Below, piece after piece: positions 241-38,654 of a stretch of 50,174 nt of DNA (within the stretch, counting starts at the first letter, position 1; every line of letters starts with the position of its first letter). Both the position numbers and the translations under genes were made by a program. Below the pieces are notes generated by a model. That model ran no database searches and had not been told where the DNA came from. It saw nothing but the letters and a program-made list of their open reading frames with translations. Source of the DNA: Proteromonas lacertae (taxonomy: Eukaryota). The stretch lies in contig NGBS01000631.1 in the NCBI GenBank assembly GCA_002245135.1, positions 1 to 50,174 of the forward strand. The letters run 5' to 3'.

Positions 241-3200
241 ATCTTTTCATATTCACTATGACCTATTGTTGTATCACTTCTAACTCTCACATAATAATAA
301 TCTAATGATTTCAAGTTTACTATTTCTATTTTGAACCAAAACATCTACTTGGTGGTATGATCTTTTTAGTAAGCTCTTTTACACTTGTTACAGTTGTCTT
401 TTCACCACTTGCTACTACATTGATTGATTCAATATCTAATGATAAATCTAAGAAAGTAATATAGAATATATTTCCTTCTAAGATAGAATATTGAGTAACA
501 GAAACATTATTAATGAAACTTAATGATTCTAATGCAGATTCTAATGATCCATTACCCTTTTCATCGTATATATTATCTAATTTTTCATCTTTTATATTTC
601 CAACTACTTTTGAGAACAATAATGGCTTTGTTGTTACTTCAAACTGGCTTGTCTTTATATCTAATATAAATGTATCTGTATTATTATCGGATTGCAGTTG
701 TAATGACCAAATAGAGTATTGTGGATAATTACTACATCTTATCACTGTATTTGAATCTATTATTCTATCATCAATACTTATATCATAATCTGTTTCAATT
801 GTCTTAAAGTCGGGATCTTTACTAATTTGTATTGAATATGATTGAACTGTATAACCTCCATTCACACCTGATTCTTCATATGATAATTCTATTGCATTTT
901 CTTTATTTGATGGTGTTAATGTAACATTCACTGGTGATAATGGATTCTTTGTTGAATAATAACCAATTCCTGGAGGTATTGATAATTTGGATGGTGGATA
1001 AACATCTTTATAATACTCAACAATATGAATATTATACTTCACTTGACTTGGCATAATATTAAATATTTCATAAAAACCATTAACATTTGTTGAAGGAATT
1101 TCAAATTCTCTATAACCTGGTGGTAATGTACCTGGTAATGATTCAATACATTCTTTCTTGTATTCTTCTCCATTATCATCATATCTTCCATCACAAGTAA
1201 ATCCATCAACATCTTCATTATCTATTATATGATATTCAATATACACTTTTTCAACATCATCAAAAGATGATATAAAATCTATTAAATATTTGCAACTATC
1301 ATTCATTTGTGTTGTTTTAACAACTTTCACTCTTCCAATATTTGGTAATAAGTTATAACTCCATTCAATATCTTTAATCATTTTATTACAATCTTTATTT
1401 ATTGGTATATATGAACTGTAAATCTTTTCATTATTATCTCTTAATAAGTATGGTCTAAATGTATTACTATTCATATATTTATTCACATACAAAACTTGTC
1501 TTTCATTTTGACCATTTGAATCAATACCATTCTGTATTCTTCTGTAGTTAATTATATAAGAATCATCTGTTGGTGGTATTACTGTCAATAATCTCATACA
1601 TAAATGAGTTCTATATGTTATTGTTAATGTTATTGAATTTAATGTGAATTTCTTTACAACTTCAACATTTTCTAATTCTGGCATATTCTCCAATAGCATC
1701 TTTCTTATTTCAAATGGTTTTGTATCATATTTAAATGTTACATTATATACTTCATTCAGATAATATGTTAATGTATAACTCTCTGATAAAGCCAATCTGC
1801 TCTTATTCTCAAAGTATAATTCATCAATTGTAAATGATGGTTGATCTCTTTCATACATTATTAACTTCAAATGATCAATTTCATTATTTTTATTTGGATT
1901 GTATATTGTTATAAAACTTTCAATATCACTATTTGATACTGATTTTGATTTTACTGTAATATCATATTGATAATCTAATATCTTTGGTAGTTTTAAATAA
2001 CTAGGAGTTGTAGTTATATATTCACTTTCACCTATTTCATTCTTTGCTGCTACTTTGAAATAATATGTCTTTCCTTCCTCTAAACTACTTATATCTATAA
2101 TATATTCATCTACACTTGGTGTTTCAATATTTGGAACTCTTTCTACATCATCACTTCTTACATCATATTCATAACTGTTATTCAAATTATCAATTGATAA
2201 TCCATATTGTATAACATAAGATTCTACTGATTTTCCACCATTTGATAATGGTTCTTGTATTAATAATCTTATCGTGTTTGGATTTAAGAATGAGATTGAA
2301 GCTCCATTTACTACTTCTGGTACAACATCTTGTGTTTTGACTAAATCTAATGTATAACCCCAATGTTCATTATTATCAAATTCTACTTCATTTGCTGCTA
2401 ATACTCTTCCATAATAACTTGTACTTGGAGCTAAATCACTGAATATATATCTATATCCTTGTAATGGATAAACTGTATGTTGTTCTTCAATCACTTTAAA
2501 ATCAGATACTGATGATATTTCTACTACATAATATAATATTGGTTTTCCACCTGTATAAATTGGTTCTTTCCATCTCAATTCTAATGATGTACTGTTTACT
2601 ATAACAAAGTTAACATCAACTGGAGCACCTGATACTTCACATGGTATGATTGGTTCATTAACTGAAACATATTCACTTTCTCCTAACTCATTATATGCAG
2701 AAAGACTTAAATAATGATCATATCCAGTAATTACATTACTAATAATTATACATCCATTACATTTTTCACTTGTTACATGAATTGAACATTTAGGTTCACT
2801 ATTATGTCGTATTTCAAATGTACTATATTTTATTACATTCTCCAAGTGTATATTGTATGTATAAGATTGTACTACTTGAACATTCTGTTTTCCTTCTGTT
2901 GGATATCCTTGATTATAGCAATCTGTAATATTCTCATAATACTTACCTAATAAGCAATACTTTCTACCATTTATATAAATATCAATTGGAGTTCTTATAT
3001 TAAACACTATTTCACCATTATTGCTACTACTAGTGCTTCTTATACTTCTTTCTTCAAATTCAACTTCTCCAATACTAATCTAATATGGTATTCTAATTAT
3101 TGAAACTGCTTTTATTACTGGTATTGATTCAATAACACTTCTCATTTCTCTAATTTCACTTCCTAATGATATTGGATCTGAGATATATTCATCATACACT

Positions 3201-4056: not shown

Positions 4057-4062
4057 CATTAC
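4057..4062. repeat. Left 6-bp target-site duplication CATTAC
   Basis: Identical to 12863-12868. Removing 4063-12868 restores the host frame ...ETQCN|AFVQEK... Confidence 0.95.
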
Positions 4063-4295
4063 TATATAGTATATAAATGGGACTCTGGGACAATGTCACA
4101 GAGTCCTAACGAGTTTTCATCGATGCAATCGATGAAGCTCCCGTAAAGGTCAACTCTGAATCTAGAAGGGGACGGACTCCTAGAACACTCGTTAGAACTC
4201 TGCGATAATGTCCCATAGTCCCATTTATGTAAGGTTCCTACGGGATTCCTCCCAACAGGGTCTACTTCTCAACGGGGTCTACTTCCCTACGGGAA
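4063..4295. repeat. Left terminal inverted repeat and hairpin region
   Basis: 4063-4106 matches the reverse complement of 12819-12862 at 39/44 positions (first 16 perfect). 4194-4295 matches the reverse complement of 12744-12846. 4073-4116 also pairs with ~4184-4228. Confidence 0.9.
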
Positions 4296-4486
4296 CTCCT
4301 GTAAGCTATTTCTATACCTATCTATGAGACGATCTCCTACGGGTACTCCTGAAAGCTATCTAGAAGTGTTGGTTACCTCGAGGTGATGATTCTAATCATG
4401 CTCTTGACTCTCCTTGCTACGCTGGTGACCTTGTAAGGGCTTTTAATTGAACCGTGGAAACCAATCGTGGAACCGGGAGTTTACAA

Positions 4487-4522
4487 TTGGTAACAAGTTA
4501 ACAATTGTTAACAAATTACCAA
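4487..4522. promoter_or_regulatory. 36-bp imperfect palindrome with perfect 16-bp core GTTAACAATTGTTAAC (candidate origin or promoter)
   Basis: TTGGTAA-caa-GTTAACAATTGTTAAC-aaa-TTACCAA; a related motif is present in the remnant near 21657-21672. Function is inferred. Confidence 0.45.
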
Positions 4523-4807
4523 ATGGTAACTCCGGGAGGTTCTAGCTAGTTGTGGATTTCTCAAGGGCCCTTGAAGATAATGATTAGCAATCTCGGGAGC
4601 TTCCTAGAGGTAAGTTACAATGACCTTATAATTCACCTAGGTAAAGTGTTCCAATGCTCAACAATTGTCCGGGAAAAATGAGACTGCTAGACCGTAGAAA
4701 CTACGGGGGGTTCTACGTTCTGAAGAGCATGGAGGATGCAGAGAAGTCAACACTCGAAGAACTCCATAGTCGTACTTTTCTTGCAATCGCTGATAAGTAA
4801 AATTACC

Positions 4808-5422
4808 ATGGCTAGCAATATTGATTCTAGTAGTCTTGCGAAGCTTTCCAGGGATGAGTTAGAAGCATTGATCATCAAGGTCGAGAAGGAACAACAAGAT
4901 CTGAAAGAGCATAAAGAGAAGACAAAGGGTAAGGCTTCGGAAGTAGCTCCAAGGAAGAGTAAGTTCAATGCTAAGTACTACATCCGATGCATCGATCAGG
5001 AGTCAGCTAAGGAATGTCTCGCGCTTACCAAGGAGATGGGGGAGTACTTCAAAGAGATCACAGGCATGACTGATGAGGAAGATACCGTGATCAACAACCA
5101 GGAGGAAATAATGAAGGCTGTGAAGATAAAGTCCATCGCTGATTACCTATTGAAGTCCTTGACCTTACAAGTACAATTCAAGGAGTCAGAGGATCGCAGC
5201 AAGACTCCATTCCCGATACTACCTTACAACTACGAGGTATTCTTAACTAAACGCAACCAAGGAAAAGCACTCAGCAAGAGGATGAAACTCAAGATGGAAT
5301 CAACTGTTCATGACAACTTACCAAGAGAAGACAACTCCCTTGATAGTAAACCATCGGAAGAAGCAACAACCCAACAAGACAACTTATCAGAAGCAGAAGA
5401 TGACTTTAACGCGGTCTTCTAA
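4808..5422 (+). CDS. Viral orphan protein with N-terminal coiled coil and acidic tail
   Basis: ORF 4736..5422; likely start MASNIDS at 4808; abuts the convergent gene at 5423. Confidence 0.65.
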   Translation: MASNIDSSSLAKLSRDELEALIIKVEKEQQDLKEHKEKTKGKASEVAPRKSKFNAKYYIRCIDQESAKECLALTKEMGEYFKEITGMTDEEDTVINNQEEIMKAVKIKSIADYLLKSLTLQVQFKESEDRSKTPFPILPYNYEVFLTKRNQGKALSKRMKLKMESTVHDNLPREDNSLDSKPSEEATTQQDNLSEAEDDFNAVF

Positions 5423-5950
5423 TTAACAGTACTCCAGGACATAGAAGCAAGGATGAACTAACACCTTAAGTAATGTTTTCTCTTGGCTCTGTTGAACTGT
5501 TTGCTTAAAACACTTCATAAGACTGACAGAGGATAACAGGCACTTGAAGTAATGATAGGAAGAGTCCTTAGAAGTCTCTTGCTCTATGTCCTCCATAGGT
5601 TGATCAGGACTGGTAAGTAGCTCCATCATGTTGAAGTCAAGGGAATCGTAGGAGAGTACCTGATGATCATCCTTCAAGGAGTTGATAAAGGACTGATGAA
5701 ACATCCCTGGCCATTGCACCGGCCTTACATTATTCAACTCAACCTTGATGAAGCCATCGGAAGATGATCGATCGAAGGAGTAAACACTCCCGTAAACAAC
5801 AAAGCTAAAGTTCATACTCAAGGTGTTCACGGTCTTCTCCTCCATACTGTTGATGAACTTACAAGGATAGCTATCTCGGAGAAGCGTAACAAGGTGATCA
5901 TCGTCAGGTAAAGGACTAGAGGAATTGTCAGGAGATTGATTGCAGCTCAT
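5423..5950 (-). CDS. Viral orphan protein, possible OB-fold-like beta domain
   Basis: 175-aa ORF; FSFVVYGSVYSFDRSSSDGFIKVELNNV resembles motifs in the other two minus-strand viral genes. Confidence 0.6.
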   Translation of the reverse strand: MSCNQSPDNSSSPLPDDDHLVTLLRDSYPCKFINSMEEKTVNTLSMNFSFVVYGSVYSFDRSSSDGFIKVELNNVRPVQWPGMFHQSFINSLKDDHQVLSYDSLDFNMMELLTSPDQPMEDIEQETSKDSSYHYFKCLLSSVSLMKCFKQTVQQSQEKTLLKVLVHPCFYVLEYC

Positions 5951-6021
5951 TACAATGCACGATGAAAATCAAGGACTATGAGAAGCTCAATAAATAATTT
6001 CCCAAGATAAAACATAAGGAC

Positions 6022-6432
6022 ATGGACACCAAAGTTATAAGCAATATTGTAATCCCTTCAGCTCACTTGCAACCCAAAGAAGAAGAAGAAGACAAGACCG
6101 AGGATAACCAAGAAGGAGATATCCAAGAAGTTGAAGACCAAGGAACTGCACCTACTTCAACACCATTGACAGAGTCACAATCAAGTGAGTTATCCATGGA
6201 AGTCAAGACTGAAGAAGTTAAACAACCAGAGTTAGAAAGAGACCGAAGTAGTCATCACTTACACGATGAACAAGACCTAGATGCTGAGCTTATTGAAGAC
6301 ATGACTGACGAAGAGATTACAAACTTAAGAAAACACCTTGAGGAACTTATCGAGGTAGAGAAGGAGTCTAAAGATGAAGACAAGGATGAGGATGATAACA
6401 ACGAGATCCAGGAAGTAAAAGAATCTGAGTAA
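6022..6432 (+). CDS. Highly acidic viral protein
   Basis: 136-aa ATG-started ORF, D/E-rich, preceded by the shared pyrimidine-AG motif. Confidence 0.65.
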   Translation: MDTKVISNIVIPSAHLQPKEEEEDKTEDNQEGDIQEVEDQGTAPTSTPLTESQSSELSMEVKTEEVKQPELERDRSSHHLHDEQDLDAELIEDMTDEEITNLRKHLEELIEVEKESKDEDKDEDDNNEIQEVKESE

Positions 6433-6494
6433 AGTACTCATAAGGAGCAACTCGCAAGGAGGTACTTACAATATCTCTTTTCTCAGGAGTAATC

Positions 6495-7397
6495 ATGAAC
6501 AAGTTCAAGAGATTCAACTTAGCTGATAGACGAAGAGTACTTTTCAAAGGCAATGGAGTAGACAAGGATGATTAAAATGACCTTCATGAAGCTTACTTAC
6601 AATCACTAGCAAGAGATGTTCAAGGAGCTATCTCCCGAAGAAGGAATCGAAGGATAGATGAACTCCGAGGAATGCTCAGAGACAACAACACGGAACATCC
6701 GATGATGGGTAAGGATGCAGAACTCCAATGAGCTTACAATGTAGCTAGTGACTATCTTACTGCCTTGGAGAACAATGAGTTGATGAGTCAAAGGATGGCA
6801 AGATCGTTGATCCCCAAGAAGACTAAGAGCAAGAACAAGAGAGTTGCTTACAAGACAGACTCCATCGTAGATGCGATATCAACTCCTGGATTCCTTGTAG
6901 TTCCTACAATCATGAAGAGCATTGAAGCTGACCGTGAAGTAAGTGACTCCTCCGAGGATCTCGACCCTTTAACAATGATGATGATGATGATGAAACAAGG
7001 AGCCAGAGGAAGCTCCGATGATGGTGATGAGAATACAAAGGCCTTACTAGGTCAACTACTTACTACTGCTGCTGCTGCTGATGATGATGATGAATCAAAG
7101 AAACCTACCTCTGAGGATATCAAAAAGGTAATGGACTCACTCAAGACTGAATACTCCGATACAGTCTTCAATGAACTAGCCGACTCCATCCATCCTACTC
7201 CTATTACAGGGAATAAGTATGTTAATGATAGCAAGTATGAATATGGAGAAGAGAAGTCAGAAGTTGAAGCTCCCGAGGATGACTCAGGTAATGAAAATGA
7301 CTCCTTAGACAACTACTTAGACGATGATGAAGAATTCGACCAGGAACTTAACAGTGCTATGAAGAAGAAGAAGAAAGCTCTTAAAGCGATAACATAA
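6495..7397 (+). pseudogene. Viral orphan protein (~300 aa) with two premature stops
   Basis: ATG at 6495 (MNKFKRFNLADRRRVLFKGNG) reads in frame into ORF 6765..7397 through TAA 6573 and TGA 6729. Confidence 0.7.
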
Positions 7398-7443
7398 GCA
7401 TGACTATCCCCAGTAATTCTTTTCCCTTAAGTATAGTCTTGTT

Positions 7444-7638
7444 ATGACTAAGAAACTCAACAAGAAGCAAAAGACAAAGCTCAAGGAGCTGATCATCAAG
7501 AGATTGAAGCAATGTAAAGCAACACCTAGCAGTCACTACTCTGACCTTTACAAGAAGTACTACCAGGCAATCACTGATCATTACAAGGATGTCGATATCA
7601 ATGTCCATGGCAATGAAATAGACTCCTCCGATCTCTAG
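7444..7638 (+). CDS. Small basic viral protein
   Basis: 64-aa Lys-rich ORF with the same upstream motif as its neighbours. Confidence 0.5.
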   Translation: MTKKLNKKQKTKLKELIIKRLKQCKATPSSHYSDLYKKYYQAITDHYKDVDINVHGNEIDSSDL

Positions 7639-7664
7639 TAATCCATTTCTCTCTAGTAAAGACG

Positions 7665-8621
7665 ATGAGAAGCAAGGCAAGTAGCAAGAGTCCCAAGAAG
7701 GTAAAGACAAGTGATGATCCTCTATTGATCATCAAGAAGCAATTGTTGGAGGAGTTCAATAAGAAGGTTGAAGGTATCACCGATGTTAAGAAGCTCTCAA
7801 CAATGACCGTGAAGATGATGGAGAACAACACCAAGGTAATGGAAGGTAACAATCAGCAGATAGTATCGATGAACTTAACTCCCAGCAATATACAATCAGG
7901 TACTATGGTAAACAACTCCCCAGCAAGAGAACTTTACAAGGCCAACATGATTAACCAGTACGGTAAAGCCAACTACTATAACTACCGAGACTTTGCTGGT
8001 AACATCAACACTCCAGCTTCAAGGAACCTCTCAGCACTCTATCCCAATCAATCAACTTACTATCGCAATCCATCGGTAAGTCTTCCTAGCTTACAGCAGC
8101 AGGCTAAACAAAATCAATGGATGAGCAATCCCCATCTAGTCTATCAACAGAACACTGCCCAGATCAACAACGTTCTTAGCAACTTACAATCAATGATCGA
8201 GAAGTACTAGTACGCAGCTCCTGATCAGAAACCATTGATCAGGACAAGCATAATCAGCTTCATCGAGAACTTAAGGAACGCTACCAACACCGGAGCTACG
8301 AACAGTGATGTTACCAGAGCAGTCTTCAATTATATCAACAACCCAGAGATCAAAGGCCTCTTGAACTTCTCCGATGAGATGATCAAGACTTTCTTTGGAC
8401 CGACAATGTACCAGAGCTTCATAGACGTCACCAACAACACGATTGGAGCAGTCGAAACCACTGCAGACTTCGGAAGGAACTTACTTAACCTCAGAGATGC
8501 TTACAATAAAGGAACCTTATGGAGTAACCTTGGTAACTTCGGAACATCCCTGGATAATGGCTTTCCAGCAGTCAAAAGACTCTTAGGATATGGCAAGGTA
8601 GGAAGAAGAATCCCCTTATGA
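7665..8621 (+). pseudogene. Viral protein (~318 aa), candidate core/structural protein, one premature stop
   Basis: ORFs 7665..8210 and 8235..8621 are in frame across TAG 8208-8210 (MIEKY*YAAPDQKPLIRT). Ends LLGYGKVGRRIPL and lies just upstream of the capsid genes. Confidence 0.65.
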
Positions 8622-8700
8622 AAGCTTTACCGAAGACGTAAGTAAGAGACTTATGGTAAATCGTTATTCAATCTTTTCCTTAAGTTCATTTTTCTCGGAC

Positions 8701-9663
8701 ATGTCCAACCAAACAAGAACGATCAGCATTAGCTCAGCTAGAAGAATTGCCCAGAAGAAGAAGTACAAAATGATCATTGCTATCCCCACCGACGTAAGGA
8801 AGGACAACTACAAGTACATTGCCTTGAAGTATGCTAGCATCCCCAACTCCTTCTATGTTGTCCAAGAAGGAGTCAATGACCAGATGACCTATGTCTTCCA
8901 GATCGCTATCCGTACTGCAGGAGATAAGTATGAACACGTAGAGTTCAACTACAACATGACAATCCCTCAAGGAGACTATAGTGGTGATGAGCTCCTTGCG
9001 ATGTTCAACAGTCCCTTTGAGAAACTAACTCAAGGAGAAGTTATCAAAGTGATAAAGACCGTCCATCCAGAGTTAGAAGCAAGTAGTACCGGAAGCAACC
9101 TCCTTATGTTCGATCCATCAACAGCCTTTGGTAAGAAGAAGTGCACGTCCTCTGATCCTCATCATATCCACACAACTAACTTAACCTTTACAGGAGCTAG
9201 TAATGTCATCGGCCTTAAAGCAAACAACATCGCTGGTAATGAGTACACAGGAGCCTTCATCTGCTCTATCAAGTTAAAGTCTCCAGGGATTGCTTATCGA
9301 TTCCTAGGGATGGGAGATACTCAATATGTCCTAGCTGATCATCAACACACTTCATCCGGTCTATTGACTTACAAGTATCCAGAAGTAACATTGCCTGGAT
9401 AGCCTACGATCATCTGGGTAGACTCTGTAAGCATCAGGATAGACATGGTGAACCAAGATCAAGACTCCAAGATCCTAGAAACTTTCCCTATCGTGGATTT
9501 TACCCAGCCTTACATTGCCTTCAACAACAACGATCTCATCTCCCGAGCAAAGCAATTAGGTAACTACACGGAAGGTCAAGTAATCGTTAGCATTACCCAA
9601 CAAGATGGCTTCCAGCTAGACCTCAAGATGCATGACTACAACTTCGAGGTAGCCTTATTCTAA
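8701..9663 (+). pseudogene. Minor capsid (penton) protein of Polinton-like virus/virophage type, one premature stop
   Basis: Typical penton motifs: TISISSARR, IALKYASIPNSFYVV, MTIPQGDYSGDELLAMFN, and C-terminal VSITQQDGFQLDLKMHDYNFEVALF. ORFs 8653..9402 and 9445..9663 are in frame across TAG 9400-9402. Confidence 0.8.
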
Positions 9664-9714
9664 GTTCCTTTCCATTGAATCATTTCCTTTGTGTATTCTA
9701 AGGAGTTATTAGCA

Positions 9715-11085
9715 ATGTCAACTCAAGTGATCATCCCCGAGGAGCAACAACATGCTCCTCTCATCCCAATCATGAATCCACTCTACCAGACTATAAAGCT
9801 TACTCCTACTCAATCTTATCCTAAGGTCGACTGCCCAGAGCAAGGCATGACTCCTGAGATCACATTTGAACTCCCTGGTAATTACTGCAGCAACTTAAGC
9901 AAGAGTTACATCCAGTTCTACGTTGACTATTACGGTAACAATGGAAAAACTATGGAACCTGATATTAAGAATGTTGATAAGTCAGGGGATTGGAAGTTCT
10001 TTTACGATACTTACGTGTTATCCAACTCTTATAACTTAACCGAGATCAAGGTCTACAACTCCAATGGAGTTCAGTTACTGTATGCAGATCATCAGTATGA
10101 GTTGTTCCGACAAATGATGGTTCAAGTGGCAAGGAAGAACATTGATAAGTATAATCAGAAGGTTTACTTTGATGGCTGCTATGCCGAGGAAAGCAAAGAC
10201 ACTGAAGACTAAGAAGTCAAGGAGTTTAAAGTAGAAAAATTAAAGGACGGGCATTACCGACGTCTAGTAAAGATCTTCCTTGGAGAGCTCTTCAATACAA
10301 TACTTAGTTCAGCAACAGATGTCTTCTTCTCGGAGAAGCTATTCATCACTTTGAGATTCGGTAAGGCTGATGGTTTCTACAATCCTAAGGAAAGTAAGAG
10401 TACTAAGTTCAATGAGATGAAGGATAGTACAGCTAGGGAGATGATTGATCTAGTAAAAGCAAAGATGATAGAACCCAATGTAAAAGTTAGCCTAGACAAC
10501 TTCTACTTCTACGTGAAGGTTAACAAGGATCCAGCCTGTAATGACAACACGATCAAGTACTGCCTTAACAAGACAATTGACTTCAATGACTTCCATTGCT
10601 TTACTGTCACTAGCAGCTCCGGTATGGACTTCTTTCGATATACCTTTACCTTGAATAGTAGTCTCGGTAAGTACATCAAGTTCATTGTCTATCGTCCTTA
10701 TGATGGGAACGACAAGATCCAGAAGCTAGATAAGCAAAGTACTAAGTTCAGATGGCTTATCAATGACTTCCAATACAACCCAGACTTTGTTAACCTCAAG
10801 GACTATGATAACTACCACATGATAAAGCCTTTGCTAGCCTGTAGCTGGCACGATCAGTACAACTACGTTCAGGAGGAAGATAAGTTCATCGAGGTACTCA
10901 ACTTTAGTAACTTTGGCTTATTCGATCTCCAAAATAGACAAGGTAAGAGAATGGATCAAGATATTAAGTTTACCTTTGAGATGTACTCCGACACCCTCAA
11001 GACCGAGAACATCTTCCATCGCTTCTACGTGGTCACTGGCCGAGGAGCTACTGTCAATGAAAGTGGTATCGTGAACATCATCTAA
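9715..11085 (+). pseudogene. Major capsid protein (double jelly-roll, ~456 aa), one premature stop
   Basis: PEITFELPGNYCSNLSKSYIQFYV and KIFLGELFNTIL...KLFITLRF resemble Polinton/PLV major capsid motifs; adjacent to the penton gene. ORFs 9691..10212 and 10351..11085 are in frame across TAA 10210-10212. Confidence 0.75.
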
Positions 11086-11537
11086 AGGACGATGATCGGA
11101 GAGATCACCTCATACTTGGGATAGATGATATCGATGGAAGGAGTTCTCTTGATCGTGAGCTGATGGTTCTTTACCCACAAGACAACTTCCTTATAAGTGC
11201 AGTCCTTATCTATCCCGTGTAGATCTTGGGTGACTTTGCTTACAACAACATAGACTTGCTTAACGTTATCGGGAGAGGCTGGTAAAGCAACATTGTACTT
11301 TGCCTGGATCTTGCATTACTTCTCGGCAATCATTAGCATCTGGTTCTTCAACTCCTCGGAGATGTTCCTCCAGCACTTGAGCTCTCCATTGTTGAATCGT
11401 AGGAAGGTAACATTCAGGAGCTGGATGATGAAGTTCTTGTCAGTCTCAATGATCTGGTGAATCGTTCCTCGGAGTTGTACTTGCCATTGAAGTGCATAAG
11501 GAACACTTACAAAGATGTTATTATCGGTGCTATCCAT
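11082..11537 (-). pseudogene. Viral orphan protein (~151 aa), one premature stop
   Basis: ORF 11316..11537 continues in frame after TAA (IAEK*CKIQAKYNVALP...SPIIVL*) to TAG at 11082, which overlaps the major capsid stop. Confidence 0.7.
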
Positions 11538-11608
11538 AGACGATTGAACCCAATATCAAAAGTTAATGATAATCAGTAAAGCCTTAAGAAGAAGTTAAGT
11601 ACTAGGAA

Positions 11609-12526
11609 TTAAGCCGATGTTGAAGTCATTGAAATAGCTGCTGGTTGCTCAGGGTTCTGAGGAGTCTCTTGAGGCTGTTGTTGTTGTTGTTGTTGTTGTT
11701 GAACTCCTTGAGGTGCAACTACTTGAGTAGGAGTAGGAGTAGGAATAACTCCTTGAGGAATCATCCCTTGAGGGAACTGAGGTTGTGGAGGCTGATAAGC
11801 ATTCATGGAGATGTCCTTGATCTCGTAATGAGGAAAGATACGTACAGGTTGAATAAAGTTACCTCCTGTTGTAGTTCCATCGCTAGACACTTCCTTACCG
11901 GGATAGATAACTGAATCCTTGATCACTAGCAAGAACATGAAGACTTTACCGACGTTACTATAGATGTTCTGCTTAAAGGCCAAGAGCTTCTTGGTGCTTC
12001 TCTTCCAGAGAGTTGCACTGAGAGTACCTGATCGAGGAGTTGAAACATAGGTGGTGTTGGTGATCTGAAGATGCTTAGGGAAGGTTGGATCTTGTTGAGT
12101 TGCCATGGCCACGTTGTATCGTAAGCTCTTGATAAACATCTCGGTGTTGTTGGAGTCAATGAAGAAGGACATCACCCTGGTAACATTCAACTGGAGGTAG
12201 TAGTTGGTATCATACTCGGAGATCTTTTCAACCATGGCTTCAACGTAGAAGGGTACTTGATCTTGCTTAAGGAAGTAGTGCCAGTACTTACCACAGATAC
12301 GGAGCTGGGGCTTCTCAGGTTGTAATTGTCGTTGTTGTTGGGCAGCTCCGGGAAATGCAAAGGAATTTGAAGGAGCCGATGGAGACATCATCATCACTGG
12401 CTGGGATATCACGGGTTGATTCATCATTGGTAAGACTGAAGCTGGATTGAAAGAAGGAGCTGTCATAGGAGCAGGCATTGCTAAGTAAGGAACTTGTTGC
12501 ATAGCTGGTTGATTGAAAGAGTTCAT
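11609..12526 (-). CDS. Viral orphan protein with P/Q/M-rich flanks and a globular core
   Basis: ORF 11609..12562; likely start MNSFNQP at 12526; polyQ near the C-terminus. Confidence 0.7.
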   Translation of the reverse strand: MNSFNQPAMQQVPYLAMPAPMTAPSFNPASVLPMMNQPVISQPVMMMSPSAPSNSFAFPGAAQQQRQLQPEKPQLRICGKYWHYFLKQDQVPFYVEAMVEKISEYDTNYYLQLNVTRVMSFFIDSNNTEMFIKSLRYNVAMATQQDPTFPKHLQITNTTYVSTPRSGTLSATLWKRSTKKLLAFKQNIYSNVGKVFMFLLVIKDSVIYPGKEVSSDGTTTGGNFIQPVRIFPHYEIKDISMNAYQPPQPQFPQGMIPQGVIPTPTPTQVVAPQGVQQQQQQQQQPQETPQNPEQPAAISMTSTSA

Positions 12527-12580
12527 AGGAAACGATAAGTAGTGAAAGATAAGATCGACCAAGAAATATATGACTGAAGT

Positions 12581-12622
12581 GAACCTAAGAAGAAACCTAA
12601 GAAGGAACCTAAGAAGGAACCT
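12581..12622 (+). repeat. 12-bp tandem repeat (AACCTAAGAAGG-like, ~3.5 copies)
   Basis: gaacctaagaagaaacctaagaaggaacctaagaaggaacct. Confidence 0.8.
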
Positions 12623-12743
12623 TCAAAGGGATCGTAGAACCATCCTAGTCTTTACAATTGGTTTCCACGGTTCTGTAGATGAACTTTTCTTTGGAAGAGT
12701 TCTTCTCGTAGAATACTCCTTGAAGATCATCCTGTAAGAGATC

Positions 12744-12862
12744 TTCCCGTAGGGAAAGTAGACCCCGTTGAGAAGTAGACCCTGTTAGGAGGAATCCCGT
12801 AGGCACCTCACGTAAATGGGACTATGGGATATTGTCACAGAGTCCTATTTATATACTATATA
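12744..12862. repeat. Right terminal inverted repeat with terminal hairpin
   Basis: Inverted match to 4194-4295 and 4063-4106. 12813-12851 (TAAATGGGACT...AGTCCTATTTA) is self-complementary. Confidence 0.9.
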
Positions 12863-12868
12863 CATTAC
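12863..12868. repeat. Right 6-bp target-site duplication CATTAC
   Basis: Identical to 4057-4062. Confidence 0.95.
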
Positions 12869-15800: not shown

Positions 15801-17842
15801 TGTAACTGTAAATCTTGGACATTTGTATATCATTGTATTATTCTTTATACTTTCTAAGATACTTTCATCAGCTTCAAAGAAATAAGGATCAGTGAAATGA
15901 ATAGTATATGATATAATGTGACTATCTTCATAATATTTAAGTGTTAAATCAATATCTCTATCAAATAGTAACTCTTTCAATTTCATTAATAATAACGTTG
16001 AATTCAATGGGTTGTATAAACATAAAGTGTCAATTCCATCATATATAATACCAACAGAATAATCCTTTAGATCTTCTAATGAAATATTGATTGTTAGTTT
16101 TGGTGTGTATGTATGTTTAATTTCATATTCAGCATCATTTATCATTACTGTATCATCATCAGTTATATATTTTCTATAGTTTGAATCAAGTGTAATAATA
16201 TTCCTATTATTCTCAGCTTTCTCTGATAATAATATATCACCATTTGTGCCATTTAATTGTTTTGCATTTTCTTCATCACTATATTCTCCTTCTATTCTGA
16301 TTGTATCACCTACAGCCAATACTGAACCAATATTTACATATTTATCTGAATCAACTGTTATTATATTAGATTCTTTAGCTGTTTCTCCTCTTATATTCTC
16401 AATTTCTGTTGTTAAAACAGAATCAATTGTATTTATTCTCACATCACCATATGACATTAAATCAAATAAACTATAAGCAATAAATGATGGATTTGATATA
16501 TTCAAACTATATTCTTTAGACTTCTTACCATTACTATATTCACTTTGGAATTTATACAATGTGGTAAACTCATGAGTACATTCATTAATAATCTGTTGTT
16601 GTTACTTCTACTCTTCCTACATTTGGTAATTCTTCTAAAATCACTTTCATTTCTTCAGCTGTTGTTTCTACTGATATATCTCTTGAATAATATATATTCT
16701 TATCAACACATAATATACATTCTCTTGTATCAAGTAATAAACGATAATAACCTAATAAATGATCAGTACCAGGGTTTGAATAATGTAAAACAACACAGTA
16801 TCATCTTGAATATCAACATTATTGATTGTATATGTTGGACCTTTAACAATTGTTGGAAGTAATTGATGATATTTTGATAATATACCCCACATTAATTTAC
16901 CATCTTCATTCTTTATCATTTCATTATCATTAAATTCTATTGTCCAAGCTTGTAATCCAATATTTGAATCTTCTACTGTTGTTGATACTGTTATTGTATT
17001 ATAAATACCTTTTGCTCCATATAATTCACCAAATTTATAAGCTAAAACATCAATTGTGTCATTCAGATAAAATTCAATTTGTTTTGTTGGGAATTCTGGT
17101 AAAGATAAGATAAACGAACCAGATAAATGTCCTCCATATATTGTATTTACTGTAATATTAACTATTGGCTTGAAATTACTACTTGATAATGTTATTTCAT
17201 CTTGTTTTCCTGTTAAAGATTCTCCAACATATGTAACTATTATTGATAATGATAATTGTCTATTGGGAGGTGTTATTTTTACATCTATATTTCCTTCACC
17301 AAATAACTTATCTAATTGTTCTTGCACTCTTTCTTTTAATCCTAATTGGCCTTCTGTATCATTAAATACTGGTAAAAATGAAATACTATCTGTTTCAAAT
17401 TCTTGATATTTCAATTTAAAATCACCATTTGAATCTGGTCCTTCTTCTAATAATTCATGTTTAATAGTAATCATTTCTTTCTTATCACTAGTAATAGTTG
17501 CAATGGAAGGATGTTTGCCATAATAACCAGTATATTCTATCATTATTACAAATCCACCTAAATAATATTTATCATTATTTTCTTTATTGTATGTCAATGT
17601 AATATCACTTCTTTTTCTATAATTTGGTATTTCAACTGATACTACTTTTCCAATATCATACATAACTGTCATATTGAAAGAATCAACAAAATATCCTTCT
17701 TCAATATTTTCTATACTTGATTCAAATTCAACATCTTTATTCTTTTCAGACAATGATATTGTTGGTATTGGAATAGAACCTTCAAAATTATAATAAATAA
17801 TAAAGTCTTTACCTCCTTTTTCATTTACATTTACAACTACCT
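12869..17842 (-). pseudogene. Giant FN3-repeat surface protein, upstream segment (5' end not seen)
   Basis: ORFs 16752..17753 and 12849..16559 are joined by 1-bp shifts near 16800 and 16590. Repeated LEELPNVGRVEV/LENAPTVGKVNV and FN3 (LTNLEPTIYYIHIRT) motifs. The frame opens near 17842-17860 without an ATG. Confidence 0.8.
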
Positions 17843-20399: not shown

Positions 20400-21720
20400 T
20401 TCGATTTAGTTAGCTGGCATTAGGATTGGATTTTGAACTGTTGGCTGGGCTATTGGGATTGAAGGAACATAGGAATTCACCTGGTACTCGATTATCGGAT
20501 AGCTGTCTCCTTGAACTTTATTGAGACCTTGGACATTCTCACCGAGTGAATTCCTAGCTCCGATGGCCCCTTCTACCTTCATTCCACGGTTTGTTATTCC
20601 TGACTGATTCTGGGTAAATGAGTTGTTGGCATTACCAAAGGTGTTGATCGCCTTGAGTTGTTGGTATTGCAAGGGGTCATGATGGAGTTCTGATAGTCCA
20701 CATACTTCTGGTAATCATCAGCAAAGTAAGTTGCTGAAGGATGCACACTGAGCTTCTTAAGTTCCTCTTCATCTAGCAACTTTCTAAGGTCGGGGTTCTT
20801 TACGAGGAAATGATCGTTATAGGACTTGCTAGCTATGTACTTCTCCTGAGTTCACCACTCTCCTCTATGTTGTTCTGCAAGGGATTGGTCTTAATGATTG
20901 ATAAGGAATTACATTCTCTGTCTTGAGTATCATCGGTGTTGTTTATCTTGACCTGTAAATCCTTCCTAAGCTTCTGTTGTAGCGCCTTCAAAACTCTTGA
21001 AGTAAGCTTCTTCTTGTTCATTGAGTTGGTTCTTGTGTCGTCAATAGCAACGATGTCGGGGATGGGAATGGGTATTGCTGGACCTTTGGATGTTCTTCTT
21101 CTTCTTATTCTACTAGCATTTATCAGCTTCTGGATGTTGCTTAAGCATTGCTTTGGATCATTGACAATCAGGTTACATTCTTCTTCTTCTTCAGGCTGTT
21201 GTAGTTGTGGATCTTCAAGGGGTTGGTTCATCATTGGGAAAGACTTTACTACTTGCAGACGATAGACAATGACTTTGTTGGTGCTTCTACGGCTCCATGT
21301 TTTACCACCTTTATTTCTCTTGGCCTTATGATGTTATGCTTTACCGTGTATATCACCTTGCTTTTCTTAAAGAAGTTACCTATGTCCTGAAAGCATCCCT
21401 TGCCTTTGACTTTTGCCTTCTTCGATTGTTGGTTCTCAAGGAAGCTGCTATAAAGGGTGGGACTATAATAACAGTAAGATCCTCGTCATAGCATTGATCG
21501 GTAAGATCTTACTTTGGAATTGTAGGCATGGATAGGCATCTTACTTTGACCTTGGAATTAATAAACTGAAATGTCATTCTCAAAAGCTATCTAAACGTAG
21601 AAACCCTCGTGGTTTCTTCAGTCTAGTACTTTCGAGGACTTAACCATTTGGCAGCTTGTTAACAATTGTAAAGATCAGATTCTACGATTAGGTTCCACGA
21701 TTTTATTAAAATCCTTGTAG
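20400..21720 (-). mobile_element. Truncated remnant of a virus related to the 8.8-kb element
   Basis: Same raised GC and codon style. The reverse complement of 21590-21715 matches non-coding motifs at 4435-4530 and 4685-4728. TPLQYQQLKAINTFGNAN resembles SPARELYKANMINQYGKAN of the 7665 gene. Broken ORFs 20833..21234, 20594..20779 and 20406..20672. Confidence 0.75.
21249..21539 (-). pseudogene. Small basic viral protein with GxG plus amphipathic helix (core/membrane-lytic-like); not in the ORF track
   Basis: MPIHAYNSKVRSYRSML*RGSY...KVKGKGCFQDIGNFFKKSK...; in-frame TGA at 21486-21488. Confidence 0.55.
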
Positions 21721-21739: not shown

Positions 21740-21975
21740 CTTGTTCAAAATCTAATTTATAAAAAGCTGGAATTGGAGTTGGATTAGTTATTGTAAATTC
21801 TTTTGTTTGAGTATCTAAACAAGTTGTATCACCTTATTTCTCATTATTATTTGCTCTTTTTAATGCAAATTCAAAATGATCACTAAATTCACCAAGAGTT
21901 GAACTTGTATAAGATACTTCGATTGTTACACTTTCTTCTATACCTAATTCACCTTCTACACCTCCTAGTACACCA
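21740..21975 (-). pseudogene. Fragment of an ASH-domain (Hydin-like) host gene
   Basis: My translation: GVEGELGIEESVTIEVSYTSSTLGEFSDHFEFALKRANNNEK*GDTTCLDTQTKEFTITNPTPIPAFYKLDF, resembling consecutive Hydin ASH domains. Confidence 0.45.
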
Positions 21976-22006
21976 AATCAAACCAAATCAGATTTTATCT
22001 CAATAC

Positions 22007-24455: not shown

Positions 24456-24925
24456 TGCTCTTTAATTTCCTTTTTTAAATAGAAAGATTTAATAATTATT
24501 ATATTCTAATTATTTCAGCTAATTTATTTTAATCTATATTAGCTAAATATACATTTAGTTTGCTTCAAAAATTTCTAGAAAACAAATGGAGCAAATATTC
24601 AAACTATTTATATTAACAAAAAAGGGGTACTTAACATTTGAGCACATGCTCAATCGATTGAACATGGGGTTTATAGAGGGTTTTCGTCTATTCTAATTAG
24701 ATATTCTTATACATCTTTGTATTTCTTATTTATAAAAATAGTCTCAGCTTCATATGTAAACTACATGCTAATTCAATTAATTTGATTTCGAATATTTCAC
24801 TCAGTAATAGCTTCAAAAAATGCTATAAATTATGTTTAGACAGGATCTCCGTTTTATTTCTTCATATAAAAACTATTGAATGAGAAATCTATAAAAATAA
24901 AAATTGAGCACAAGTTTTGATTTAA

Positions 24926-25684
24926 AAATTTTTCAACATAGACTTAAATTTCAGCACAAGTTTTAATATTAAAATAGATACAGTAATTGCTAATGAATGC
25001 TTCATAGATTATTTTATTATTAATGATAAAATAACAAATTATAATATCAATTTTAACTTTATTAATGATAATGAAAATGAAACAAAAGTAAATAATAATG
25101 AAACAAAAGAATATGAAAATGATAATAGTAGTACATTTATAGAAACTTTTAATGTTAAAATAGTAAAAGGACATAAAATTGAAAAAAGAATAGATGTTCA
25201 TGGCAATATTAGCAGAAAATTAAATAAATTTTTAATATTTAACAAAGAATTACGCTCAAGCAAGTTTATGAAAATCGTTAATATATTAAATATTAAAAAT
25301 ATTACTGATTGCTGTTTAATTCAAACATTTAATACAATTAATATTTATAAATATCAATTTATCCCAATACTATATCACAATCATTACAGCTTATTATGTA
25401 ATTTCAATAACAAATTAACTCATTATGATACAATTGGTTTACATTTGAATGATGAATATATATATAGTAAGTTTAATGTTAAAAATGTTAAATGCATAAA
25501 ATTAAAACAAAAATATGGTTTTACTTGTGGCTATTTTATATTATATATAATATTATTAATTAGTAATAATAAACAAATTGCGGAATTAGATGATGATAAA
25601 ATGTTGGAAGATTTAAAATTAAATATTCAACAAAAATACAATGAAAATCCAGAGAGAGTGATTAATATAATTGAACAAAATTAA
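24926..25684 (+). CDS. Ulp1/C48-like cysteine protease inside the TIR element
   Basis: FIPILYHNHYSLL..HYDTI..KQKYGFTCGYFIL gives the H-D-Q-C catalytic pattern. Frame open from 24926; first ATG at 25268. Confidence 0.65.
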   Translation, partial: KFFNIDLNFSTSFNIKIDTVIANECFIDYFIINDKITNYNINFNFINDNENETKVNNNETKEYENDNSSTFIETFNVKIVKGHKIEKRIDVHGNISRKLNKFLIFNKELRSSKFMKIVNILNIKNITDCCLIQTFNTINIYKYQFIPILYHNHYSLLCNFNNKLTHYDTIGLHLNDEYIYSKFNVKNVKCIKLKQKYGFTCGYFILYIILLISNNKQIAELDDDKMLEDLKLNIQQKYNENPERVINIIEQN

Positions 25685-25774
25685 TATTAATCAATTATAT
25701 TATTATATTACTATTTTTATTATTATTTATGTTATAATTATAATTTATAATAAAAAAATAAACAAAATAGAAAA

Positions 25775-25800
25775 TTAGGGTTAGTTTTAGGGTTAGGGTT
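25775..25800 (+). repeat. Degenerate TTAGGG telomere-like repeats
   Basis: TTAGGGTTAGTTTTAGGGTTAGGGTT. Confidence 0.6.
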
Positions 25801-27169
25801 AACATTGATGATATCTAAATACCACACACAATTCAGAAAAGCTAAAATAATTAATAATAGTCAGACAAATTTCAATATGAGATTCATGGCGCTATCAGAA
25901 ACAACCTGTTCAAAATTTGAGCAGCTGTACAAAATAGAACTTTCCGTTATTCATTGTTTTATTCATATCATTATTTTTAACTTCATATTATACTCTTATT
26001 TGTAACATATTTCTTCTATTATAATCTCTTCATCTTCTTTTAACATATTCAAACTTAAATTACTTGAATAATATGATCTGATGAATTTAAAAGGATAGAT
26101 ATTACATATGTGCAATTTTTGTGAAATTATCTCTTCAACTTAATACCATAACTACAATCTTTCATACAAATTTATGGATTAATAAATCTAAACTTTCTAA
26201 AGGAATAATAAAAATTATAGTACAATATGATTCTACCATCTCTGACGATTTATTCTTTCATCTACAAATTTATATAATAGAAAAGTAATATATTAAAAAT
26301 AAAATGCTATTATGCTATACATGTAGCAACTACAAAAGAAATTAAGAAAAGAAAACTAATAAAAAATTATATTCGTTTCTATGTTTGATTTGAATTTAAA
26401 TAAAAAAACTATTAATATTGAGTCTTCTGATGTAAATTATTATAAATATAGAATTGATACATATAATTTTTGTTGATTAAATAATTTCAATCAGCGTTTT
26501 AAAATAATAAGAAATTAAATAATTTGATTAAATGAAGTTATGAAAATACTATTTTAATCATTCATAATATTTATTGTGAAATATGCAATTGATTGTAATG
26601 TTTATTTTATTAATTTACTTCTTATATGCCCCATGCTCAAAATTTAAATCTATGTTGAAAAATTTTCAAATCAAAACTTGTGCTCAATTTTTATTTTTAA
26701 AGATTTCTCATTCAATAGTTTTTATATGAAGAAATAAAACGGAGATCCTGTCTAAACATAATTTATAGCATTTTTTGAAGCTATTACTGAGTGAAATATT
26801 CGAAATCAAATTAATTGAATTAGCATGTAGTTTACATATGAAGCTGAGACTATTTTTATAAATAAGAAATACAAAGATGTATAAGAATATCTAATTAGAA
26901 TAGACGAAAACCCTCTATAAACCCCATGTTCAATCGATTATTAAAAGTAACAATTTTTCATCAAGACAAGTAAGAATATACATTTAGTTTGTTTTAAAAG
27001 CGTCTGGTAGACAAACGGCCAACTAGACAAACGGCGCACAACATCATTACTTGAAAATTGATTATTAGATATAATATTATCATTAATTGAATATTGATTA
27101 TTATAAGAATTTTGAGTTAACTCTTCCAAATTTAAAACATTAATGAAGAAAATGCTCATAATTTGAATA

Positions 27170-28147: not shown

Positions 28148-28218
28148 TACTTATTATTGTAGCAATAGTAGCAGATCTTTGTATGTGTATATATGTAATA
28201 GATATATTGCAATGAATA

Positions 28219-30069: not shown

Positions 30070-30097
30070 TACATCAATATAAGAATATTGAACTTAA

Positions 30098-31102: not shown

Positions 31103-31248
31103 CGAGGTTAATTAAATGTGTAAGATGTTTATTATAATTTTACTTCTAAAACAAAATGCAACTTATATTAACCCTAACTGTTTATGAACAAAACTTTAAA
31201 TTTCTTAAAATCTAAATTATACAAATAATATTTACTTTACTTATTTAT

Positions 31249-32445: not shown

Positions 32446-32471
32446 TAATTTGGTCAATACAAAGTAATTAA

Positions 32472-33251: not shown

Positions 33252-33267
33252 CAATATAGTTAATTAC

Positions 33268-35083: not shown

Positions 35084-35111
35084 TCTTAAGCTTAATTATA
35101 CAAAAATATTG

Positions 35112-36137: not shown

Positions 36138-36154
36138 GATACTGACATTGTAAA

Positions 36155-37024: not shown

Positions 37025-37046
37025 AATATCTAATATTGGTAGGTAT

Positions 37047-38246: not shown

Positions 38247-38258
38247 TTAGAAATTAGA

Positions 38259-38654
38259 TTGCTTACTTTAGATGATATATACAATCACAAACAAAATATA
38301 TTATTACTCAAAATTGATGTAGAAGGATATGAATATAATGTGCTGGTTGGAGCAAAAAATCTCTTAAAAAGACATATAATTAAAATAAAATATATAGAAA
38401 TAAACTGCTATGGTATAATAAATTCTGGATTAAATGAAAAGAATATTTATAAAACCCTTACATTTTATAATTATACTATTTTTAATAAAAGAATTTGTAA
38501 CAGTGTTGGTATATTTGACATTTATGCAGTATGTAATGAATTTCTATCATGTTTATTATTTACTTTAAAATTTTTATATTATTTTACATTTCCTTTTCCT
38601 TCTATGTGTTTCAACATGATCTATTACCTCACCTTCATTCCAAAAATTATATAA
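38259..38654 (+). pseudogene. C-terminal half of an FkbM methyltransferase
   Basis: TLDD..LLKIDVEGYEYNVLVGA present; SAM-binding N-terminus absent. Confidence 0.7.

Follow-up and report, generated by a model that had tools for sequence, protein, structure and literature searches.

Polinton-like viruses (PLVs) are united by a core trio of capsid protein, penton and ATPase, on which their discovery and classification are based, and an A32-like ATPase belongs to this stated core (10.64898/2026.06.19.733378). Gene losses have been reported for Polintons, in which capsid, ATPase and protease disappear jointly while the transposon half stays (PMC4028283). No integrase could be detected in Ca_PLV1, an integrated PLV that parallels the element described here, and its provision in trans was suggested (PMC11296320). 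Partial copies of PLVs and virophages in Halocafeteria seosinensis retain their ends and possibly rely on complete ones; those discussed in the main text lost structural genes, and the supplement may list a capsid-only case (10.64898/2026.07.28.741278). The MELD virus of Blastocystis, which carries PolB and integrase, represents a helper type in at least one gut stramenopile, and the figure legends of the same report include protein-VI-like genes in other MELD viruses (PMC8502044). For the prokaryotic Odin and FLiP groups, assembly around the genome was proposed (PMC5894146).

The window, which is the whole stretch of DNA that was analysed (50,174 nt), contained an insertion with the reverse of the Polinton losses. 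The capsid was kept and no enzyme, the ATPase included, was recognised; this pattern and the capsid lineage appear to be new. Precedents existed for core-gene-poor PLV copies with inverted repeats and duplications (10.64898/2026.07.28.741278), for an integrase-less integrated PLV (PMC11296320) and for palindromic PLV ends. Neither a capsid-only, ATPase-less endogenous PLV family nor this capsid lineage was found in full-text searches, which covered mainly open-access papers and the main text of bioRxiv preprints.

Insertion, target site and host context

The element occupied positions 4063–12862 (8,800 bp) with exact ends and was flanked by CATTAC at 4057–4062 and 12863–12868, a 6-mer match with a chance of about 0.001 at host composition.

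4057–4062, + strand: left copy of the target-site duplication (TSD), 6 bp, identical to 12863–12868
4063–4078, + strand: outermost 16 bp of the left end, resembling a TA repeat and identical to the right end in inverted orientation
4070–4231, no strand assigned: left subterminal fold-back, 49-nt arms, 86% complementary, with an imperfect palindrome copy of ~28 bp in each
4193–4287, + strand: inner inverted-repeat arm, 91% against 12753–12847 (9 differences in 95 bp, 8 of them transitions)
4438–4719, + strand: left non-coding motifs common to the decayed relative at 21594–21714 (blastn, 70–85% identity, best E 4e-10)
12753–12862, − strand: right inverted repeat, one palindrome copy and the terminal 16 bp
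12863–12868, + strand: right TSD copy, identical to 4057–4062

The terminal inverted repeat was exact over the first 16 bp and 89% over 44 bp, and no other exact copy of the terminal 16 bp was found within the window. The exact ends, the 6-bp CATTAC duplication and the inverted repeats had all been described in an earlier, sequence-only reading, and they were reproduced here. The left fold-back (~115 bp; arms 4070–4118 and 4183–4231) had a folding energy of −39 kcal/mol with DNA parameters and a z of −9.2 against 200 base shuffles. This extra fold-back was located on the left only, and the unequal ends of the element may mark a rearrangement. Polinton-like AG...CT termini were rejected, because the five outer bases of the element were inverted rather than duplicated.

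The GC content was 0.42 in the element and 0.26 and 0.24 in the flanks, and the host was an AT-rich eukaryote, likely a protist. When the element and one TSD copy were excised by script, 1,571 host codons were open up to a stop, and the other two frames contained 164 and 303 stops. The host frame was thus restored by excision, as had been claimed, but it was also open with both copies kept, so the test does not single out the TSD. The host had been named an FN3 gene. A Pfam FN3 match was found in the host stretch 326–3079 (E 1.5e-17), and an in-frame stop (3080–3082) separated this stretch from the interrupted one; we infer that the two belong to one gene. The first 240 bp of the window were repeated at its end with a 1-bp indel, which indicates a circularised or untrimmed contig.

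Gene content and state of the copy

About ten compact genes had been noted earlier. The element contained ten ORFs, which covered 83% of its length with spacers of −4 to 79 bp; all had a start and a stop, none was truncated and none of the ten required a frameshift.

4808–5422, + strand: ORF A, 204 aa, charged, acidic tail, orphan, intact, no significant match
5423–5950, − strand: ORF B, 175 aa, orphan, intact, hydrophobic globular composition, chance-level matches only
6022–6432, + strand: ORF C, 136 aa, 35% Asp/Glu, likely disordered
6495–7397, + strand: ORF D, acidic except for a basic tail, either 300 codons interrupted by stops at 6573 and 6729 or, read from 6783, an intact gene of 204 aa
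7444–7638, + strand: ORF E, 64 aa, Lys-rich (22% Lys/Arg)
7665–8621, + strand: ORF F, 318 codons including a stop at 8208, with an N-terminus that is basic and an amphipathic C-terminal helix
8701–9663, + strand: ORF G, 320 codons, stop at 9400, directly upstream of the major capsid gene
9715–11085, + strand: ORF H, major capsid protein (MCP), predicted double jelly-roll, in-frame stop at 10210
11082–11537, − strand: ORF I, 151 codons, stop at 11316–11318, orphan, hydrophobic globular composition
11609–12526, − strand: ORF J, 305 aa, orphan, intact, Gln/Pro-rich ends flanking a core of ~160 aa

When ORFs B, C, D, E and I were kept out of training, the expected frame had the highest codon-bias score along most of each ORF; the signal was weak in the first 80 codons of D and at the ends of B and E. 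Places that might conceal a deletion scar are the 745 bp of non-coding sequence on the left, the weakly coding region 6433–6782 and an in-frame fusion.

In-frame stops were located at 8208, 9400, 10210 and 11316–11318; a start of D at 6495 would add two more, at 6573 and 6729. The description of the locus as a complete virus therefore holds for its ends, but four genes, perhaps five, carried in-frame stops, and the present copy is probably dead after four to six nonsense changes. All three stop types occurred internally if D is one gene, and two otherwise. Reassignment of stop codons was considered unlikely, because these codons also serve to terminate genes and Gln was encoded by its ordinary codons 139 times in 2,429 codons.

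ORF E would likely be a DNA-binding core protein. ORF F is likely a core or entry protein, with a predicted resemblance to adenovirus protein VI: a weak phmmer match (E 1.1, third of four) linked positions 8451–8555 with pre-protein VI (7rd1), and the hydrophobic moment peaked at residues 288–309. The sole site of the adenovirus-protease type among the ten ORFs was at residue 306 of F. By its position and size only, ORF G is likely a penton (minor capsid protein), for which a single jelly-roll would be expected, and no relatives of it were found in Pfam, a word-index search of near-length proteins, IMG/VR or JGI metagenomes. Pentons lie directly upstream of the MCP in virophages and some Polintons (PMC4028283).

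ORF B, ORF I and the core of J were 150–175 aa long and globular in composition. Pairwise tests gave no support for B, I and J as paralogous OB-fold proteins, with scores reached by 23, 128 and 5 of 200 shuffles. The match of ORF B to a DNA polymerase II model was at chance level (E 0.033; 12.8 bits against a cut-off of 1435), and B is big enough for a small nuclease or integrase core. Ten window proteins (eight from the element, two from the host) were looked up by exact sequence in a protein collection, and none was present; Rfam gave no match.

Major capsid protein and its relatives

The AlphaFold2 model of the MCP, built with 29 sequences, had a pLDDT of 77.4 and a pTM of 0.78, against a pLDDT of 29.6 for the single-sequence model. 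Foldseek matched it to iridovirus and PBCV-1 capsids (E 1.6e-12), and comparison with the PBCV-1 capsid gave a VIA Z of 24.1 (rmsd 6.0, 380 aligned). Entries for viral capsids or capsid scaffolds filled the top 16 rows of the structural matches, and the highest Z of any other row was 7.3. The mavirus and Sputnik MCPs (Z 17.4 and 19.1; 7–8% identity) ranked under the nucleocytovirus capsids (24.1), and FLiP gave a Z of 9.8, against 24 for eukaryotic-virus capsids. The MELD virus protein A0A8S5L5M3 was a structural neighbour with 10% identity. The double jelly-roll expected for 9715–11085 was confirmed in the predicted structure; this capsid fold is the criterion of Bamfordvirae.

A full HMMER search returned 61 unnamed relatives of the MCP in at least seven deep branches. 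All of the 59 that were looked up came from Logan assemblies, and no named or NCBI protein was among them; these relatives thus gave no support for kinship of the element with MELD viruses. The longest contig among these 59 was 7,818 bp, which is weak evidence for a compact form because Logan contigs are usually short, and the genes may sit inside larger viruses with enzymes. A word-index search, restricted to near-length proteins, gave no relatives, and the MCP was missed by sequence searches of Pfam, PHROGs, NCBIfam and PDB. No related loci were found in scans of IMG/VR (including the end pattern), JGI metagenomes or GTDB genomes, and the window held no second MCP gene. The MCP family was invisible to Pfam, PHROGs and the IMG/VR scans, yet it has these 61 relatives. 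The proposal of an undescribed group held for the capsid lineage, for which the searches gave no named relative, but core-gene-poor PLV copies were already in the literature. On sequence comparison the capsid lineage appears undescribed, and it would serve as a new lineage marker even if the present copy is a deletion remnant.

Enzymes not recognised in the element

No strict Walker A motif was found in any coding frame read through stops, and the only match in six frames was in a stop-ridden non-coding frame. With one mismatch allowed, the ten ORFs gave a single match, inside the MCP. Judged by motif, the packaging ATPase is absent from the element, in agreement with the earlier reading. The longest ORFs besides MCP and penton had 300–318 codons and were low-complexity or compositionally biased; a protein-primed PolB is too large for this length. 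PolB motifs were not found in six frames of the element, nor were integrase, tyrosine-recombinase, HUH or adenain motifs found, and the absence of PolB, integrase, tyrosine-recombinase and protease motifs noted earlier was thereby upheld. For integrase there was neither a motif nor a Pfam match, and a divergent integrase core would fit by size into ORF B, ORF I or the central part of J. The adenovirus-like (Ulp1-family) cysteine protease likewise gave no motif and no family match.

Pfam, PHROGs, NCBIfam, PDB sequences, GenBank phages and the ESM Atlas gave no significant match for the element ORFs tried, and the ESM Atlas gave no usable match for J or B. The silence of family searches on A, B, I and J is weak, because the same searches also missed the MCP; these four may be divergent small enzymes, for example a hidden small integrase.

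A decayed relative in the window

20400–21720, − strand: decayed, diverged family-member fragment, 41% GC, with left-end motifs, short ORFs and an ORF-F-like stretch

The fragment was located ~8 kb from the element, was itself truncated, and contained no terminus, duplication or capsid gene. Its F-like score was reached by 1 of 500 shuffles and by none of 114 host control frames, which represents a modest match and one of 12 comparisons. The shared left-end motif and the F-like gene were within ~1 kb, with no enzyme between them.

Proposed life cycle and alternative explanations

Since a capsid was present without an ATPase motif or a recognisable polymerase, integrase or protease, the element likely depends on a larger helper virus. 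We tentatively favour, at somewhat less than an even chance, a compact helper-dependent virus that makes its own particle and relies on a full-size polinton-like virus in the same host for polymerase and integrase. The window contained a single full copy of the element, no helper was found, and satellite status is our reading of the gene content. A retroviral-type integrase, suggested by the 6-bp duplication of Polintons, would act in trans on the terminal repeats. Replication could start at the ends, primed either by fold-back of the observed subterminal palindrome or by a protein bound to the TA-repeat termini, with the polymerase of the helper or the host. In packaging, the basic proteins E and F might condense the genome and the capsid form around it without an ATPase encoded by the element, as has been proposed for the Odin and FLiP groups (PMC5894146); alternatively, the ATPase of the helper would be used. 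More weakly, the protein-VI-like end of F may be cut by a helper or host protease during maturation or entry.

A one-off internal deletion, rather unlikely in our view, would have turned a 15–25-kb polinton-like virus with its own integrase into a decaying remnant by loss of its replication, integration and ATPase genes in one or more steps. The single copy, the nonsense changes and the unequal ends are consistent with it, and the ends and the duplication would look no different had a deletion followed the insertion, so that movement of the 8.8-kb form as such is inferred. The 30 fragments of Halocafeteria PLVs and virophages, some of which keep both inverted repeats and duplications (10.64898/2026.07.28.741278), provide a precedent, and the truncated relative 8 kb away indicates that truncation happens in this region. 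However, no gene was truncated at a coding density of 83%, and a clean loss would be needed of polymerase, integrase, ATPase and any protease alike. Behind the left end of the second relative, too, there were no enzymes. Ten abutting genes without truncation and an enzyme-free decayed relative both favour the compact helper-dependent element over a one-off deletion.

A minimal virus without a helper, in which small unrecognised proteins among A, B, I and J nick and integrate, host polymerases replicate the hairpin-primed DNA and capsid assembly takes place around it, is improbable. The strong subterminal hairpin, the size and composition of B, I and the core of J, and the escape of this lineage from profile searches would suit it; palindromic ends accompany non-pPolB replication in Halocafeteria elements (10.64898/2026.07.28.741278), and prokaryotic double jelly-roll viruses without an ATPase exist (PMC5894146). 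Against this, no catalytic motif and no significant database match was obtained for the ORFs tried. The cleanly structural gene set would also fit the capsid segment of a bipartite virus whose partner has matching ends and carries replication and integration genes, an arrangement as in bidnaviruses. The PolB of segmented bidnaviruses is of the Polinton type, and replication modules of such viruses appear to move alone. We consider this very improbable: the window contained no partner, the fragment at 20400–21720 shares the end motifs yet carries F-like rather than replication cargo, one preprint knows of no segmented dsDNA element or integrating segmented element, and the reading has no evidence of its own. 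An assembly artefact, in which collapse of several related insertions shortened the element or made the stops, is barely credible. The window-end repeat and reports that stop codons of endogenous viruses can be consensus errors point towards it, but both junctions were internal and unique, the host frame was restored, no ORF needed a frameshift, and near-identical Logan copies of one relative were also broken at shared sites. The stops are more readily explained by an artefact than the length is.

Comparison with known systems

The element resembled Polintons/Mavericks (Polintoviricetes) in its 6-bp duplication, inverted ends, double jelly-roll MCP and likely penton directly upstream. However, it was about half their size, had short and unequal ends, and lacked pPolB, a packaging ATPase and a detectable integrase or protease. 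It shared with polinton-like viruses the form of a small integrated double jelly-roll virus with inverted ends, and the A32-like packaging ATPase, which with MCP and penton defines them operationally, was not found. In VC40, a reduced PLV group, replication genes were likewise not detected, but VC40 is 15–20 kb and keeps an A32-like ATPase (10.64898/2026.06.19.733378), whereas the element was 8.8 kb with no Walker A. The Halocafeteria PLVs and virophages also have palindromes in their terminal repeats beside the duplication, for which hairpin priming was proposed, while their complete elements are ~24 kb with full enzyme sets (10.64898/2026.07.28.741278). The Blastocystis MELD virus (PMC8502044) is similarly a protist virus with highly divergent virion proteins; unlike the element, it encodes PolB and integrase, and it is a candidate helper type only. 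The MCP, ATPase and protease set of virophages (Virophaviricetes) was not present, as there was no ATPase motif and the mavirus and Sputnik MCPs ranked lower.

A recurrent 9-kb form with a capsid but without an ATPase would mean that packaging in a eukaryotic double jelly-roll virus can do without a self-encoded motor. It would also mean that a virion module is able to persist as an independent mobile unit, mirroring the capsid-less transpovirons. The prokaryotic Odin/FLiP groups (PMC5894146) are alike in their small genomes, double jelly-roll MCP and lack of a packaging ATPase; however, FLiP is a circular ssDNA virus with a rolling-circle Rep, and the MCP of the element was nearer to eukaryotic-virus capsids. 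With considerable doubt, a family of ~9-kb eukaryotic double jelly-roll viruses may be proposed, with the element as its first member, which would encode only virion and small accessory proteins, with no polymerase, integrase, protease or packaging ATPase, and assemble a capsid around a hairpin-ended genome. Such viruses would live in protists as satellites that bear their own capsid and exploit larger polinton-like viruses, as parasites a level beneath the virophages, and would be a eukaryotic counterpart to the ATPase-less Odin/FLiP groups.

Insertion site and terminal structures

The virus-like element spanned 8,800 bp (4063–12862), with a GC content of 42% against 26% and 24% in its flanks. 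The sequence CATTAC was present at both flanks as a 6-bp target duplication (chance match ~0.001), and the outermost 16 bp formed an exact inverted repeat between the ends, which bore out the sequence-only reading of an integrated element with exact ends. With the element and one duplication copy taken out, the minus strand read open over 1,571 codons, where the other frames carried 164 and 303 stops. Excision thus restored the host frame, as had been proposed, although the frame was also open with both duplication copies retained.

The adjoining host stretch (326–3079) contained fibronectin type III (FN3) domains (E 1.5e-17) and probably forms one gene with the interrupted stretch. The host itself is AT-rich and eukaryotic, probably a protist and, from the general look of this repeat protein, possibly a stramenopile. 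Interruptions of the host gene at 3080–3082 and 16602–16751 may be short introns or decay. Apart from a 1-bp indel, positions 1–240 were repeated at 49936–50174. The FN3-type gene appears to continue across the join of the window ends; the contig is circularised, untrimmed or else a tandem unit that was collapsed. Elsewhere, a dense and apparently intron-poor run of ~18 long ORFs (27167–46084) resembled glycan-modifying enzymes, and the two ORFs tested matched an acyltransferase-3/SGNH fusion (E 2.3e-25) and UDP-N-acetylglucosamine 2-epimerase (E 1.1e-84). The run is possibly a laterally acquired surface-glycan cluster.

The two ends of the element were unequal. The left end contained a fold-back (4070–4231) with 49-nt arms (86%), at −39 kcal/mol and a z of −9.2 against 200 base shuffles. 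An imperfect palindrome of ~28 bp occurred twice in this fold-back and once at the right end, and positions 4193–4287 were matched by the right end at 91%, with eight of the nine differences being transitions. TA repeats formed the outer bases. [quoted passage not shown]

Gene content and capsid proteins

Ten ORFs (A–J), separated by −4 to 79 bp, occupied 83% of the element, in agreement with the earlier count of about ten compact genes, and the terminal non-coding DNA measured 745 and 336 bp. In-frame stops were present in ORFs F, G, H, and I, and D contained two more when its start was placed at 6495; a frameshift was needed in none of the ten. Stop-codon recoding is unlikely; stops in endogenous viruses may also be assembly errors (PMC10120064).

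A search of 1.84 billion representatives with ORF H (9715–11085), read with X at its stop, recovered 18 relatives (best E 4.5e-73), the eight best of them at 31–38% identity. Follow-up searches extended these to at least 61 proteins, of which 38 measured at least 400 aa and 23 were shorter; one cluster was represented by 15 of its 19 members among those listed. The 59 looked up (all except P0017 and P0018) were proteins without names from the Logan assembly collection. Their contigs did not exceed 7,818 bp, the length of the one encoding P0021; P0044, P0060, P0051, and P0045 came from contigs of 7,154, 6,255, 5,962, and 5,409 bp. Judged from sequence, the lineage is nameless in the collections searched, and to that extent the suggestion of an undescribed group was sustained. 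A tree of 18 rows, from which near-duplicates and most fragments were excluded, had at least seven deep branches and placed the ORF H product on a long branch, where joins may be false, as the tool cautions.

The structural model predicted from 29 sequences (pLDDT 77.4, pTM 0.78) matched double jelly-roll capsids in Foldseek at 6–12% identity, with E values of 1.6e-12 (PDB) and 1.1e-13 (BFVD). In VIA-align the model was aligned with PBCV-1 at Z 24.1 (r.m.s.d. 6.0, 380 aligned), followed by faustovirus (22.7), ASFV (20.9), Sputnik (19.1), mavirus (17.4), and FLiP (9.8), and the best non-viral row gave 7.3. The predicted fold confirmed the expectation that ORF H encodes a major capsid protein (MCP) of the double jelly-roll type. 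This protein was missed by Pfam, PHROGs, NCBIfam, and PDB sequence searches, so the silence of the same searches on other ORFs has limited meaning.

ORF G (8701–9663) has the position and size of a penton and is a putative penton on those grounds (for placement, compare PMC4028283); sequence searches found no relatives. The C-terminal end of ORF F (7665–8621) contained an amphipathic helix that weakly matched adenovirus pre-protein VI, non-significant alone (E 1.1). After this helix lay the sole adenovirus-protease-type site in the ten ORFs. The basic virion proteins are putative core proteins.

Fragments of MCP relatives that were 93–100% identical to an intact protein numbered ten, of which three extended to the C-terminus and seven stopped early. 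Five of these seven early ends fell at three sites within one cluster, where the intact copy had a codon type one transition away from a stop. P0014 and P0033–P0040, near-identical copies of one MCP relative, broke again and again at three sites that they had in common, never at Gln; either decay driven by transitions or a variant genetic code in their host would fit this pattern. These fragments suggest that related copies elsewhere decay too.

Enzymes not detected

The enzyme motif patterns, the pPolB size, and the protease consensus used here are background assumptions. A strict Walker A search of six frames read through stops gave one match, which lay in a non-coding frame full of stops. 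When one mismatch was allowed, the ten ORFs gave a single match, within the MCP. By these scans the packaging ATPase is firmly missing, in line with the sequence-only reading, which had seen no Walker A; PMC5894146 describes such ATPases as easily spotted from these motifs. The claimed lack of PolB also stood firm on size, pPolB being too large for any ORF of the element.

Motifs of integrase, recombinase, HUH, and protease were absent from the element. The earlier claim therefore held for integrase, recombinase, and protease motifs but not fully for the enzymes, since a divergent small enzyme is possible among the orphan ORFs A, B, I, or J core (150–200 aa). Family and sequence searches with these gave chance-level matches only, such as ORF B with a DNA polymerase II model (E 0.033).

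A 300-bp inverted repeat, 99% identical, was located at 24652–24951 and 26640–26939, with no flanking duplication seen. Within it lay a 252-codon ORF (24926–25684) without a Pfam match, whose His, Asp, and Gln-x5-Cys spacing presumably resembles an Ulp1-type cysteine protease. The unit (24652–26939) is possibly a transposon remnant, and its ORF a possible source of protease in trans.

Compact design or deletion

A diverged, decayed relative was present in the same window:

~20400–21720, minus strand: second relative, 41% GC; left-end motifs and an ORF-F-like stretch; no terminus and no capsid gene

Its left-end motifs were shared with the element (best E 4e-10), and the F-like stretch followed them within ~1 kb with no enzyme gene between. 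The F-like score, the best of 12 comparisons, was reached by 1 of 500 shuffles and by none of 114 host frames. The adjoining stretch (21760–22000) was apparently a piece of a host gene.

The element is a real feature, and its lack of enzymes can be stated firmly for the ATPase and pPolB but may not extend to a small integrase. Intact ends cannot distinguish design from accident, because a later deletion would leave them in place. A one-off deletion of a larger virus is unlikely but carries real weight: the window holds a single full copy, decayed by stops and unequal at its ends, with two stretches where a scar might hide, and published partial PLVs retain their ends (10.64898/2026.07.28.741278). 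The sequences searched yielded no helper, further full copy or empty site. Compact design is favoured because no gene of the element was truncated and because the second relative also lacked an enzyme between its left end and F-like stretch; weak support also comes from the 59 MCP relatives looked up, none of whose contigs exceeded the element in length.

We lean, at something short of an even chance, towards a helper-dependent capsid-bearing virus, a putative satellite of a presumed helper. A retroviral-type integrase supplied in trans would insert such a virus, a helper or host polymerase would start replication at the ends, and packaging would proceed around the basic core proteins, either ATPase-free or with a borrowed ATPase. 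That the virus is minimal yet self-sufficient, with enzymes that escaped recognition, is improbable. Still less probable is one segment of a bipartite virus, for which the segmented bidnaviruses (PMC11071308, PMC11071296) offer a comparison and against which one preprint states that segmented dsDNA elements are not known (10.1101/2025.08.03.668216), and an assembly artefact is the least probable reading.

Comparison with known viruses

The element was similar to Polintons and PLVs in integration signature and capsid (for the 6-bp duplication of Polintons, see PMC3014272). However, Polintons have pPolB and the operational PLV core includes an ATPase (10.64898/2026.06.19.733378), and the element, lacking both, falls outside either group. 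Further comparisons are the Blastocystis MELD virus (PMC8502044) and PLV core genes and transpovirons (10.64898/2026.10.13.758929); PMC12129017 and 10.1101/2024.03.23.586382 are related papers. A capsid-only, ATPase-less endogenous PLV family was not found in the full texts searched.

VC40 has no detectable replication genes, retains the ATPase and measures 15–20 kb (10.64898/2026.06.19.733378). Ca_PLV1 is integrated without a detectable integrase (PMC11296320), the Halocafeteria elements show partial copies and palindromes (10.64898/2026.07.28.741278), and the Odin and FLiP groups, which are prokaryotic, also have no ATPase (PMC5894146). Each of these nearest precedents matches only part of the pattern of the element.
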